DNA of 64,000 nucleotides from Octopus vulgaris (lineage: Eukaryota). A model generated the notes under the pieces. The model was not told the DNA's origin, made no database searches, and was given only the letters and a program-made list of their open reading frames with translations. The position numbers and the translations under genes were made by a program. Below are positions 7,735 to 43,496 of this stretch, in pieces. The number at the start of each line of letters is the position of its first letter. Position 1 is the stretch's first letter. Location of the stretch: positions 105,586,001-105,650,000 of the forward strand of contig OX597819.1 of assembly GCA_951406725.2 (NCBI GenBank). The letters run 5' to 3'.

Positions 7735-8289
7735 ATAATGAGGGTAGAAATAGATATTAATCAATTAAAACCAGTGGCTGGGCATATTTTAAAAAATCCG
7801 AAGATTAAGAATTATATTACATACAAAGTTAAGAGGAATGGCCGCCAACGTGGACATCTAATATGCTAAAGATATACTTCAAATCGCCTTACCACGAAGA
7901 GTGTGTTCTCAAGAAAAGTTTCAGAAAAACGCCAGAATGTAAAAATGAGCAAGACAAACGAAAATATACGAAATAAAAAACGATTACCTACGTACCAATG
8001 GTTTCATTTGTTAATATTTACGAATGTAAATATCTGCACGCTCATCAGCGTAGTCTGTCGCTTACAAAACACAATTTCCAGAAGCAGATACAGAACGCTC
8101 ACCCAAAAGAGAGTATGTATAAAGTTCTGCAAATTATATTTGGGGGTATTTTTCTTGCTCATTTTTATATTCTGGTGTTTTGCTGAAATTTTTCTTGAGA
8201 ACACACTTTTCGTGGTAAGGCGATTTGACGTCTATCTTTAGCATATTGGGTGTCGACCTTAGTGGTCATTCCTTTTAAATTTGTATGTA
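7735..8289 (-). mobile_element. short hammerhead-bearing PLE-like element with inverted end
   Basis: Imperfect inverted repeat 7818-7958 / 8149-8289 around a hammerhead core; flanked by (TATC)n and (TATG)n. Confidence 0.65.
7988..8053 (-). ncRNA. type I hammerhead ribozyme motif
   Basis: CUACG-CUGAUGA-stem II (AUAUUUAC/GUAAAUAU hairpin)-GAAA-CCAUUGG-UA-CGUAG; stem I CUACG/CGUAG is perfect, base of stem II is weak. Confidence 0.75.
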
Positions 8290-8344
8290 TGTATGTATGT
8301 ATGTATGTATGTATGTATGTATGTATGTATGTATGTATGTATCT

Positions 8345-8575
8345 TATTTCTTTATTACCCACAAGGGGCTAAACATAGATGGGACAAACAAGGACAGACA
8401 AGGGGATTAAGTCGATTACATCGACGCCAGTGCGTAACTGGTACTTATTTAATCGACCCCGAAATGATGAAAGGCAAAGTCGACCTCGGCGGAATTTGAA
8501 CTCAGAACGTAACGGCAAACGAAATACGGCTACGCATTTCGCCCGGCGTGCTAACGTTTCTGCCAGCTCGCTGCC
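8345..8575 (-). mobile_element. SINE family B (CORE-like), in (TATG)n
   Basis: gctggcagaaacgttagcacgccgggcg...gagttcaaattccgccgaggtcgactttgcctttcatc; also at 9.0-9.2 and 28.0-28.2 kb. Confidence 0.7.
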
Positions 8576-9011
8576 TCATAATGTATGTATGTATGTATAT
8601 ATGTATGTATGTATGTATGTATGTATGTATGTATGTATGTATGTATGTATGTATCTATCTATCTATTTATCCACCTCTCTCTCCGTTTCTCTACCTCTCA
8701 ACTCACATACATACATCCATACATACATACATACATACATACATACATACATACACGCACATACTGTTTCATTATAATCTGAAGCAAGTTAAAATCTCGG
8801 TACCTTCTGCCGCATGCTAAATTAGCGGTTGCTGATAAATATATAAGCCAGAAATGGAAAATTTCAGTGGATGGAATTTTAAATTCCTAACAACGTTGTC
8901 ACCTGTAGATTACAAATTTCTGCAATTTACTGTAAGAGTAAAAAGAGACAGAAAGAGAGAAGACGAAAAATGAAAAGAAGAGGAGGATATCGTGGAATGA
9001 GATAATAATAA

Positions 9012-9220
9012 TGGTTTAAAACTTTGGCACAAGGCCAGTGATTTCACAGGGAAAGACTAGTCAATTACATCGACCCCAGTGCTCAGCAGGTACTTATTTT
9101 ATGGACCTTGAAAAGATGAAAGGCAAAGTCAATCTCAGCGGGATTCGAACTCAGAACGTAAAGACGGATGAAATGCCGCTAAGCATTATGTCTGGCTAAT
9201 TATTCTGTCACCACGCCATT
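9012..9220 (-). mobile_element. SINE family B
   Basis: Homologous to 8345-8575. Confidence 0.65.
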
Positions 9221-9224
9221 TTTA

Positions 9225-9605
9225 TACTGCTACAACTACTACTACTACTACTACTACTACTACTACTACTACTACTACTACTACTACTGCTGCTGCTGCT
9301 GCTGCTACTACTGCTGCTACTACTACTACTACTACTACTACTACTACTACTACTACTACTGCTGCTGCTACTACTACTACTACTACTACTACTACTACTA
9401 CTACTGCTTCTGCTGCTGCTGCTACGACTACCGCTGCTACTACTACTACTGCTGCTATTACTACTACTACTACTACTACTACTACTACTACTACTACCAT
9501 TACTACTACTACTACTACTACTAAGATGAAGATGGAGATGAAGAAGATCAGGATAATAAAAAAGAGGAGGAGGAGAAGAAGAAGAAGAAGAAGAAGAAGA
9601 AGAAA
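9225..9605. repeat. compound (CTA)n/(CTG)n/(AAG)n microsatellite
   Basis: Direct inspection; source of the poly-V/A ORF artefacts. Confidence 0.95.
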
Positions 9606-10367
9606 AAGAATTGCTAAATTGTTAATAAGGTTTTTCTTTCTAACTCCAACGGGGGTTTTAGATATGAAGATTAGAGGAAAAAATAAGAGGGAGAGGACGG
9701 GAGAGAAAGGGAGAGTGAAATAGTGTAAGAGAGAGAGAGAGAGAGAGAGAGAGAGAGAGAAGAAAGAGAAAGGAAAGAAAAAGATAGTGAAGGTGAGATA
9801 GAGATGTAGCGAAAGAGAGAAAAAGAGTGAGAAAGTGTGTGTGTATGTACGTGTGAGAGAGTGTGTATGCGCACGCGCGTGTATGTGTTTGAGAGAGAGA
9901 GAGAGAAAGAGAGAGCGAGAGTAAGAGAGAAAGAAAGATAACAATGAAAGGCAGAGACTGACTGGATAATGTGTTCATGTCAAAACTCAAGCAGTAAAGT
10001 CTTTGATGAAATGGTTGGAAAGTAAAGTTTATTGTTTTTATAACGTTTGTAGATTCTTAAAAAATAAAAATTAGGATGAAGTATGCAGCTTCTTGGTTGG
10101 TGGTTATAGATCGGAAAAACGATAGTTTTTTAATGGATGGGTTAGAGCGAAATAAAACTAAAGGGTTCGTCTTTAGCGTAAATCAATTTTAAAAATAATA
10201 CGTATGAATGATGACGATGATGATGATGACGATGATGATGATGACGATGATGATGATGACGATGATGATGATGACGATGATGATGATGATGATAATAATA
10301 ATAATAATAATAATAATAATAATAATAATAATAATAATAATAATAATAATAATAATAATAATAATAA

Positions 10368-10925
10368 ATGCCCTGATGCAGTACCAGGCAGTGGCTCTCA
10401 TGGCTTCTGATCTTAACTGATTGGAAGTGTCATCATGTACATTGTTTTGTCTTGGTATAAAAGATGGGCTACAGCAAATATTCTGCTCAATACCACAGAT
10501 TTGCTTGTCAGTTGTTTGACCTTAACCAGTTGAGAATGTCCCTTAGTGGCTGACAATACGTGCATCTCTGATCACGAGCAGAAGTAGTGGGGGAGCATCA
10601 TAGCCATGTGTTGAGAGGGATTCTTTGGAGTTTGAATAATTCACCTCTGGAAACATGGGTGTTTCGTTCAACATCCTAAAGCAACCCTTATTCAGGGACC
10701 TTTTGAGCAGGATGGGCTACTCGACCTGAAGAAAATTCAAACTGGGCCCCACCTGCAAGGTCATGTGCTGTTTATCTTGATATGAGATCACCATGTCGCG
10801 CACATATGGTTGTGATGCATGTGCCTGGTGTACCCTTATCAGACGGGTAGTCATGAGGGGTATGCTGGGCTTCGTATATTTTACCCCAGTGTCACTTTGA
10901 TGGCATGCACTGCTCTCTCACTCAA
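10368..10925. mobile_element. unclassified interspersed repeat flanked by (AAT)n, with a partial second copy at 10954-11060
   Basis: ccctgatgcagtaccaggcagtggctct occurs twice, each time after an (AAT)n tract. Confidence 0.55.
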
Positions 10926-41351: not shown

Positions 41352-41623
41352 TTTTGTTAAATCGTCGTTCAACTCCATTCTTTCATTTATTTGTATTAAA
41401 AAAACACACAAATTTCCACACGAAAGCACGTGATCTCTGCCCTTGGCATGTAGCTTCAACCGTGTTTTTCTGACGTGAATTTGCTACCCGGGTATCGGTT
41501 AACCGAATTATCCATACTAGGATAATTCATTCAACTACTTATATATATATATATATATATATATATATTTAGTGTAGGAAGAAATGGAGCTGAACGAAGA
41601 TTTAACAAAATTCCTTTTTATTA

Positions 41624-41706
41624 TTTTCTACATGTTTCAAAAGCTGCAAAAACCCTAATTCGGATTGAATAAGGAGTCCATTATGCAGCCTTCTCTTCAG
41701 GAAAAT
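41624..41706 (-). ncRNA. type I hammerhead motif (inverted copy)
   Basis: Same as 42035-42120, but stem III reads GAAAC-AU-GUA. Confidence 0.7.
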
Positions 41707-42034
41707 CCAGGAACTTAATTCTCCAACAAAATGCACAGCAAGCTTTTCGACAAACGCTCACGAGGAGCCCATGGGATAAATGGCACAAAACTGTCTATCA
41801 ATATGCGTTCAGTCATACAGAATACATTCACACTCTTTGATTTTCCTGTACCCCCCCACTCCTGTTAACCGGATTTTGACCTTGAATTATCTCAACGGAC
41901 TTTTTCGTCGGCTTTCACCCAGCCTGGCGTCAACGCATATTGATAGACAGTTTTGTGCCATTTATCCCATGGGCTCCTCGTGAGCGTTTGTCGAAAAGCT
42001 TGCTGTGCATTTTGTTGGAGAATTAAGTTCCTGG

Positions 42035-42120
42035 ATTTTCCTGAAGAGAAGGCTGCATAATGGACCCCTTATTCAATCCGAATTAGGGTTTTTGCAGCTT
42101 TTGAAACATATGTAGAAAAT
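42035..42120 (+). ncRNA. type I hammerhead ribozyme motif
   Basis: AUUUUC-CUGAAGA(42041)-GAAGGCUGCA...UGCAGCUUUU-GAAAC-AUAU-GUA(42114)-GAAAAU. Confidence 0.8.
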
Positions 42121-42531
42121 AATAAAAAGGAATTTTGTTAAATCTTCGTTCAGCTCCATTTCTTCCTACACTAAATATATAAAACTTCAAATTTCCGCAC
42201 TAAGGCACGGGTTTGAGACCCCATGGTCGTAACCTCAACCGTGATTTTTCTGTTGTGATTTTTGCTACCCAGTATCGGTTATCATTTGAATAATCCGTAA
42301 TAAGATAATTCATTTATCTACTTCAATATATATATATATATATATATATATATATATATATATATATATATATATATATATATTTATATTATTATTTTAT
42401 ATTATATCGAGGGTACTACTATTCGTAGATACCAACACGCTAAGAGTAACCAATGCGGTCAAAACTACTAAAAATAAACAAAATTTTACCGAATGCAAAA
42501 CTTCAAAACACATCATTTTAAAAAGAATTCA

Positions 42532-42595
42532 GTTACATATCACATGTGATTTCGCATTTAATGCAGAATATGCATTTCATGTTCATCAGTGCAAC
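42532..42595 (-). ncRNA. type I hammerhead motif (inverted copy)
   Basis: Reverse complement of 43116-43179. Confidence 0.7.
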
Positions 42596-43115
42596 AAACT
42601 CAAGAAATATAATGAGAAAACATAACATTACAAGCTCGATAGCCAACCGTAGAATTCGTCGTAGCATGTACGAATGTTTATCTTTACATACCAATACCAA
42701 CATGTGTTTTGAAGTTTTGCATTCGGTAAAATTTTGTTTATTTTTAGTAGTTTTGACCGCATTGGTCCCTCTTGGCGTGTTGGTATCTACGAATAGTAGT
42801 ACCCTCAATAGAATATAAATGAATATTTTCAAAGAGGAAGAATTTACGGATTTTTTCTCTTACGAGGTTTTTCACGCTGACTACTGATAATTTCTTTTAA
42901 AGATTTTATCCACAATTGTTAATTTATATTTTTCACCGGAATAGTTCAATACTGAATTTTTATTCCGACTAGACAATTTGTAACCGAAATGCATTGCGAA
43001 TAAGCCCACCATTTTCATAGATATGTAAAGATAAACATTCGTACATGCTACGACGAATTCTACGGTTGGCTATCGAGCTTGTAATGTTATGTTTTCTCTT
43101 ATATTTCTTGAGTTT

Positions 43116-43179
43116 GTTGCACTGATGAACATGAAATGCATATTCTGCATTAAATGCGAAATCACATGTGATATGTAAC
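43116..43179 (+). ncRNA. type I hammerhead ribozyme motif
   Basis: GUUGCA-CUGAUGA(43122)-ACAU..AUGCA/UGCAU..AUGC-GAAA-UCACAUGUGA-UA-UGUAAC. Confidence 0.75.
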
Positions 43180-43496
43180 TGAATTCTTTTTTTAAATGAT
43201 GTGTTTTGAAGTTTTGCATTCGGTAAAATTTTGTTTATTTTTAGTAGTTTTGACCGCATTGGTCCCTCTTAGCGTGTTGGTATCTACGAATAGTAGTACC
43301 CTCAATATAATATAAATGAATATTTTCAAAGAGGAAGAATTTACGGATTTTTTCTCTTACGAGGTTTTTCACGCTGACTACTGATAATTTCTTTTAAAGA
43401 TTTTATCCTCAATTGTTAATATATATATATATATATATATATATATATATATATATATATATATACACATATATACATATATATATGTATATATAT

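Follow-up and report, generated by a model that had tools for sequence, protein, structure and literature searches.

Seven hammerhead-motif repeat families at an Octopus vulgaris locus and their relation to Penelope-like elements

Introduction

A 64,000-nt stretch of the Octopus vulgaris genome (assembly GCA_951406725.2, contig OX597819.1, positions 105,586,001 to 105,650,000; G000:C6:105586001-105650000; here called the window) carries hammerhead ribozyme-like motifs in a coding Penelope-like element (PLE) and in six short sequences lying beside microsatellites, and this locus poses the question what these look-alike repeats are and how they came to be inserted. An earlier inspection of the letters alone (the sequence-only reading) had taken the short sequences for mutually unrelated, retrozyme-like or truncated PLE families that were moved into microsatellites by the reverse transcriptase (RT) and endonuclease of PLEs, possibly via circular RNAs. 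For short, the families are called A (7.7-8.3 kb), G (20.1 kb), N (20.5-25.6 kb, the coding element), E (26.6 kb), D (41.2 kb), B (41.6-42.3 kb) and C (42.4-43.4 kb). Very probably, the seven hammerhead-motif families comprise four coding PLEs, represented by one long copy (N) and three 5'-truncated ends (B, D, E), two retrozyme-type units that were likely copied in trans (A, C) and one family without a place (G), all bearing marks of PLE insertion.

The sequence-only picture is already in print in its main lines: PLE hammerheads, the U3:A8 pair, inverted ends, TA targeting and PLE-derived retrozymes have all been published. Minimal hammerheads with U3:A8 and a palindromic loop 3, cleaving as dimers and dispersed with truncated copies, were described in the pseudo-long terminal repeats (pLTRs) of metazoan PLEs (PMC4209133), and PMC6765202 likewise reports hammerheads in PLE pLTRs and dimer cleavage. 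Animal retrozymes and their circular RNAs are described in PMC7229834, retrozymes as non-autonomous PLE derivatives in 10.64898/2026.07.22.740005, and natural U3:A8 and A6C hammerheads in PMC3088659, where A6C lowers activity in a phage example; all papers are cited here for the available part of their text. In that part of a 2026 octopus repeat annotation (PMC13282606) the word ribozyme is absent. No paper that describes the present families, natural families with G3:C8 or retrozymes with inverted ends came up in our literature search, and the supplements of earlier surveys may hold core variants.

Hammerhead motifs in the window and in the genome

The genome comprises 2.8 Gb in 227 contigs; the window has a GC content of 36% and 108 tandem-repeat rows. 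A strict hammerhead descriptor matched the window 5 times compared with 0.05 times on average over 20 block shuffles. It matched 60 evenly placed 10-kb stretches (600 kb) 23 times, with 7 of these matches from one tandem array, compared with 1, 1 and 1 in three shuffles. Per base the window lies about 2-fold above this genome sample, and the counts in the sample show it to be ordinary for the genome rather than special. A first look through the genome gave 1218 candidates for A, 832 for G, 944 for N, 2122 for E, 2641 for D, 1542 for B and 1129 for C; these figures (832-2641 per family) are not copy numbers. Each search returns its best 40 candidates, and the best 30 loci per search were fetched. 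The seven motifs belong to genome-wide, high-copy mobile families. Four further candidate motifs, at 31728(-), 36759(-), 8832(+) and 17384(+), were dropped because no family was found for them among the fetched loci. An Rfam scan of the whole window gave only microsatellite-driven miRNA matches, and no hammerhead model, among the 150 of 275 matches listed.

All six stem III words, that of the coding PLE included, were located again, each with a hammerhead core and a stem I, and the TA or TATC tracts are present beside the elements as described. A (TA)4 lies within 14 bases of the 3' end in 171/208 copies (82%) compared with 4.4% of random places (A 16/30, B 30/30, C 26/28, N 29/30, G 15/30, E 28/30, D 27/30). 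Family E, in which inversions are absent (0/30), adjoins TA also at 19/30 5' ends, which argues that TA is the target and not only a tail. The inverted 5' copies at 7.8, 41.6 and 42.4 kb and in the coding PLE are real, and among the fetched loci such copies are found in 12/30 for A and 17/28 for C and, with approximate boundaries, in 13/30 for B, 16/29 for D and 17/29 for G. Scattered breakpoints occur at the 5' side, and two alternative 3' ends, with and without a tail, occur in A, B, C, G and N.

Could the motifs be chance products of AT-rich, repeat-rich DNA and the microsatellite link a mere background? Loose descriptors do give many chance matches, candidate 31728(-) has no family among the fetched loci, and a SINE-like (short interspersed nuclear element) repeat without a hammerhead adjoins TA in 41/54 copies (3/14 in an even sample with a narrower window). 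The descriptor counts (5 against 0.05; 23 against 1) nevertheless refute chance for the motifs, as does the Watson-Crick 3:8 pair in 22/26 motif clusters described below, and the TA frequency far exceeds that of random places, so that this explanation is extremely improbable. What the SINE-like repeat removes is the specificity: the link to microsatellites, as the sequence-only reading proposed it, is much stronger than at random places, but the ribozyme elements share it with other repeats.

The coding element N and the truncated families B, D and E

Element N (20461..25580, minus strand) is a 5'-truncated PLE of the Neptune type with TA tracts on both sides, and its copies are 99-100% identical. 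In the window, its positions 24800-25580 hold the 3' end once more, in inverted orientation and with a 40-nt tail. Its open reading frame (ORF) at 21284..23638 (minus strand, 784 aa) encodes an RT and a GIY-YIG endonuclease (Pfam RVT_1 3e-07, GIY-YIG 2.9e-06) with a CxxxxCxxC linker and a CCHH-type motif, a layout of RT, linker and GIY-YIG that equals the Neptune layout of Craig et al. (PMC8557442). An upstream ORF remnant (23569..24799, minus strand) overlaps the RT ORF in the -1 frame. The 70-nt overlap (23569-23638) holds a U UUU UUA heptamer at 23608-23602 that is identical in 30/30 copies, and no stable RNA structure was found after it; a programmed -1 frameshift is possible on this sequence. 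A single ORF has been described for canonical endonuclease-bearing PLEs, and two ORFs overlapping in the -1 frame set N apart from the PLEs in the available text of PMC8557442.

Families B, D and E derive from coding PLEs by 5' truncation and are therefore not retrozymes. Family E (26625..26797, plus strand) is the 3' end of a second Neptune-type coding PLE and adjoins (TA)n at its 3' end; copy L182 runs into a CxxxxCxxC linker and a YIG domain, that is, a Neptune-type endonuclease with stops. In the translations of N and E the linker and the C..C..H motifs can be read, the assignment being by motif and not by an RT tree. Family B (41569..42325, plus strand) is Hydra-like and consists in the window of a truncated 3' end (41810-42325) and an inverted 5' copy (41569-41809). 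Its copies run upstream to scattered points, 9/30 loci share sequence more than 300 nt farther upstream, mostly to an AIY-YIG ORF, and the longest copies hold an RT-like and AIY-YIG frame without CCHH, such as a 658-aa RT-endonuclease frame at locus L091. The B RT aligns to the N RT (E=2e-05), and searching proteins with the B ORF yielded two matches, both unnamed. In 7/30 loci the B breakpoint lies at a CCCATGGG palindrome, a strand-switch hotspot. Degenerate endonuclease pieces about 30% identical to the B ORF lie in L095 (388-752) and L096 (9594-9896), which flank the window on both sides.

Family D (41195..41539, plus strand; TA tracts on both sides) is the 5'-truncated 3' end of a Hydra-like coding PLE, and copies L198, L205, L213 and L214 run into a sister ORF of 53-77% identity. 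The ends of B and D share 73% over 361 nt (z=60) and belong to sister elements, so that the families are not all unrelated as first supposed; outside the B-D pair no clear mutual similarity was seen (A-C z=2.5, others below 2). The absence of CCHH, the divergent RT, the TA ends and the hammerhead in B and D fit the Hydra clade as described, judged by motifs and not by a tree.

The Neptune and Hydra PLEs of PMC8557442 share with the present elements the C-terminal GIY-YIG domain, partial tandems, an inverted 5'-truncated copy, a tail at one end and a (TA)n bias, and hammerheads occur there in all Hydra families, whose endonuclease lacks CCHH as in B and D. The tails here measure 40-145 nt instead of 30-40; in B and D the endonuclease is preceded by a long insert of low complexity, and a CxCX5C linker is not visible. 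The D, B and C insertions at 41195-43426 are adjacent with only a TA tract between them, and similar mixed clusters occur in L041, L153 and L164; this adjacency across TA tracts suggests repeated insertion into one microsatellite.

The non-coding tandem units A and C

Family A (7728..8283, minus strand) is a 5'-truncated copy of a 523-nt unit with an inverted 5' copy (8184-8283) and a tail of about 90 nt, adjoining (TATC)n at its 3' end and (TGTA)n at its 5' end. Family C (42409..43426, plus strand) consists of an inverted 5' copy (42409-42690), a partial unit (42702-42929) and a full unit of 497 nt (42930-43426), with TA tracts on both sides. Both units are non-coding and circularly permuted, with a GC content of 31-33%, under the 45% bound for non-LTR retrozymes, and longest Met-ORFs of 87 and 96 aa, respectively. 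Their own end-to-start junction is crossed in 15/30 loci for A and 19/28 for C, and the upstream sequence is in every case the end of the unit itself.

An upstream-unbiased set was drawn for C with an exact 34-mer (404 matches; the first 100 listed, all but one cluster fetched), which gave 89 distinct segments. The junction is crossed by 42/89, and 29 segments exceed one unit, with up to 1215 nt or 2.4 units in a row. On their upstream side, 53 segments have an inverted piece, 22 a microsatellite, 7 a sense piece and 7 something else; none of the 89 leads into a shared non-unit body, the seven other pieces being unshared between loci. Around the 497-nt circle the breakpoints are evenly distributed, without clustering at a point to which a body would be attached. 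The predicted cut site is passed by 77/89 segments, and 12 pass it twice. A pile-up of 5' ends at the cut site in a first sample (4/30 within 7 nt) did not repeat in the larger one; a bin at 251-260, chosen post hoc and holding a T run, has 10 ends compared with about 3.6 expected, and for B 1/30 5' ends lies at the cut site. Read-through without an excess of ends argues that the template of C was not a cut linear monomer, while a circle and an uncut multimer both fit. The circular fold of the C unit is more stable than those of 30 shuffles (z=-3.3), which supports a circle weakly. Family C is young, with 99% identity among copies and the 404 exact copies of one 34-mer.

These data bear on whether all six short families might be truncated pLTR ends of coding PLEs, the A and C tandems being partial-tandem insertions of elements with a rare coding body. 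This explanation holds for B, D and E, and it gains from the limit of 40 best candidates per search and from the rarity of long copies (1/30 in E). For C it is opposed by the even breakpoints, by the 0/89 segments with shared non-unit sequence and by rows of up to 2.4 units, and A behaves like C in its 30 loci; we consider it quite improbable for the six together. The claim that the short families are retrozyme-like or truncated PLEs thus divides, with B, D and E as truncated coding PLEs, A and C as retrozyme-type units and G unplaced. By sequence, A and C match the definition of non-LTR (long terminal repeat) retrozymes, and they were likely copied in trans by a PLE RT-endonuclease.

With the non-LTR retrozymes of PMC7229834 and 10.64898/2026.07.22.740005 they share units that are non-coding and low in GC, stand in tandem or singly and each contain one type I hammerhead, and the mismatch at the base of stem II in C has an axolotl precedent. 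With 497 and 523 nt they exceed the 150-450 nt given in PMC7229834 and lie within the 51-972 nt of 10.64898/2026.07.22.740005, and their short partial tandems, inverted 5' copies, tails and TA targets are not described in the available text of either. In contrast to those retrozymes, A and C are known here from DNA, and no homologous pLTR was found for them.

Several further units were seen in the fetched loci. L153 (about 2250-2680) holds a 69-72% relative of C in which stem I is changed yet paired and stem III is near-identical. Further hammerhead families in head-to-head palindromes occur in L153, L219, L229 and L269; in L153 and L269 the centre of the palindrome lies a short way upstream of the core. 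L217 (3082-7693; G000:C1:20.0 Mb) is a classical retrozyme array, whose 359-nt unit contains a canonical hammerhead (C3:G8, stem III ACCGGU) and occurs five times on one strand and twice on the other.

Family G

Family G (20067..20207, minus strand) measures about 140 nt here and 205 nt with its tail, and its 3' end adjoins (TA)n. Its 5' end is fixed at a short palindrome in 30/30 loci, a result obtained with a query that includes the upstream part, as a search with the downstream part only gave nothing. Direct abutting tandems were found in 0/30 loci, the copies being monomers or head-to-head pairs. G may be a short non-autonomous element or may end at a strand-switch hotspot within a longer master, like the palindrome of B.

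Hammerhead cores and their conservation

The core tested was of type I (C3 U4 G5 A6 N7 G8 A9, G12 A13 A14 A15, U16 H17, with a Watson-Crick 3:8 pair). At family level it reads canonical in A, B, C and D, with C3:G8, and in G, with G3:C8; together with U3:A8 in the coding PLE this is the range of pairs first reported. Motif A (8048-7993, minus strand) has stem I CUACG/CGUAG, stem III ACCAUUGGU and a predicted cut after GUA; the base of stem II, GCUUG/CAAGC in the family, has decayed in the window copy. The minimal motif G (20187-20151, minus strand) has a 7-bp stem I and stem III AAUAUU, and in the window A9 is changed to U (1/38 copies). Motif D (41266-41338, plus strand) has a long stem II and, like the motifs of B (42041-42114, plus strand; 41700-41629, minus strand), stem III ACAUAUGU. 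The motifs of C (43122-43173, plus strand; 42589-42538, minus strand) have stem III AUCACAUGUGAU, and their stem II has an A.C mismatch at its base. The two N motifs (20562-20533, minus strand; 25439-25468, plus strand), with U3:A8 and stem III ACCGGU, read GCAA instead of GAAA (A13C) and have a stem I of just 2 bp beside the core. The minimal motif E (26673-26700, plus strand) has stem III ACGU and A6U. Predicted intermolecular pairing of the stem III words ranges from -0.2 to -15.8 kcal/mol; in A and C stem III could also form within a single molecule.

When position 3:8 was left free, 22 of 26 clusters drawn from 1.4 Mb of fetched sequence were Watson-Crick (16 C:G, 5 U:A, 1 G:C), and shuffles gave 12 matches over three rounds. 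Six diverged, Hydra-like motifs of the B/D type keep the core and show both-side changes in 3/16 pairs, in stems I and II, and in their alignment 91% of cells are paired compared with 31-54% in slid controls. That the core and the Watson-Crick 3:8 pair are kept across unrelated families and diverged Hydra-like sisters argues that the motif is under selection, in master copies if not in all. Sister families of N hold a canonical U3:A8 core at the same position, which makes the N motif a drifted homologue and not a chance match; the motifs of N and E both resemble hammerheads and stand where sister families hold canonical cores, and A13C and A6U would be expected to weaken cleavage.

As in PMC4209133, the motifs are of type I near the 3' end with palindromic 15.2-16.2/loop 3 and covariant U3:A8, an extra base stands between 9 and 10.1 (E, G), dispersal is mostly as truncated PLEs, and motif pairs lie on opposite strands a few hundred bases apart. 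Family-wide G3:C8, A6U and A13C and stem II inserts of 40-55 nt (B, D, A) are not described in the available text of that paper. Elsewhere in the fetched loci, two motifs have A3:U8 with stem III ACCGGU (several loci), and a family similar to E has U4C (CCGACGA, 8/11 copies). As far as these motifs go, the genome may hold all four Watson-Crick 3:8 pairs.

A model of insertion and the evidence against it

In the model that we favor, the endonuclease would nick (TA)n, and the RT would start near the pLTR end and then halt or switch strand at scattered points, which would yield copies that are truncated, in tandem or inverted. For a lizard PLE in vitro, tails are explained by reverse transcription that starts internally. 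For C the template would be longer than one unit and run through the predicted cut site, as a circular RNA or an uncut multimer. The canonical cores of A, B, D, C and G are predicted to self-cleave, mostly as dimers via the palindromic stem III, and those of N and E are probably weak or dead.

Several results weigh against this account, in addition to the TA adjacency of the SINE-like repeat. No match to an Rfam hammerhead model was obtained for the A, C and D stretches even at E<=10. The cores of N and E depart from the consensus throughout, with A13C and the 2-bp stem I in 30/30 N copies and CUGUAGA (A6U) in 29/30 E copies and 46/49 clan copies. Covariation over the six B/D-type sequences beats the slid controls but not clearly the shuffles, of which 23 to 455 of 500 scored as high. 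On the coding side, the B ORF has no Pfam match, the D ORF has only GIY-YIG at E=0.03, the CxCX5C linker of Hydra was not seen in the B and D ORFs, the Neptune and Hydra names follow motifs in the description of Craig et al. and not a tree, and the coding link of E comes from one long copy of 30. The proposed linking of each family to a coding PLE succeeded for B, D and E but not for A, C and G, as no autonomous partner was found for them (unit against coding-family ends not significantly similar) and tblastn found no PLE ORF joined to their loci, only separate neighbouring insertions. Assembled contigs of three RNA runs, guessed or labelled as such, cover C, but they speak to neither transcription nor strand nor circles, and tandem DNA gives the same junction. 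Finally, 5' ends of C show no excess at the cut site (241-250: 2 seen, 3.4 expected).

Part of this evidence favors the explanation that the hammerheads are passengers, with uncut read-through templates and with self-cleavage and circles playing no part in mobility. The youngest coding family, N, bears A13C and the 2-bp stem I throughout, E bears A6U, and C ends do not gather at the cut site; moreover, Naiads spread without hammerheads (PMC8557442), and 8 of 9 Xenopus retrozyme dimers were uncleaved in vitro (10.64898/2026.07.22.740005). However, the kept core and 3:8 pair (22/26 clusters; Hydra-like sisters) imply selection, and circles would account just as well for read-through of the cut site; we regard the passenger explanation as rather unlikely. 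We hold as a tentative possibility the bolder reading that A and C are circular-RNA retrozymes recording PLE-type integration and that the G3:C8, A6U and A13C cores still cleave as dimers. If true, the A and C copies would be direct anatomical proof of PLE RT-endonucleases copying ribozyme circles in trans.

Other features of the window

A LINE-type (long interspersed nuclear element) RT ORF (Pfam RVT_1 8e-32) and fragments resembling mariner/Tc1 transposases and the C-terminus of a LINE lie at 48920-50611 (minus strand), 15502-16149 (plus strand), 5156-6091 (minus strand) and 12067-12570 (plus strand). Telomere-type CCCTAA repeats, eight in number and degenerate, occupy 15198-15243, and a tandem repeat of 100 bp (3.5 copies) organised around ACT runs occupies 28190-28620.

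Conclusion

The known picture is unchanged by these findings, and the fresh points are modest: retrozyme units with the complete signature of PLE integration, core variants shared by whole families, and an element of the Neptune type with two ORFs. The look-alike repeats of the window are now resolved into dead ends of coding elements and independent parasites. The young and abundant element N with its consensus-breaking core bears on whether PLEs need their hammerheads, and family C offers a handy system for testing the transport of animal retrozymes by PLE enzymes via circles, which so far has been mostly inferred.

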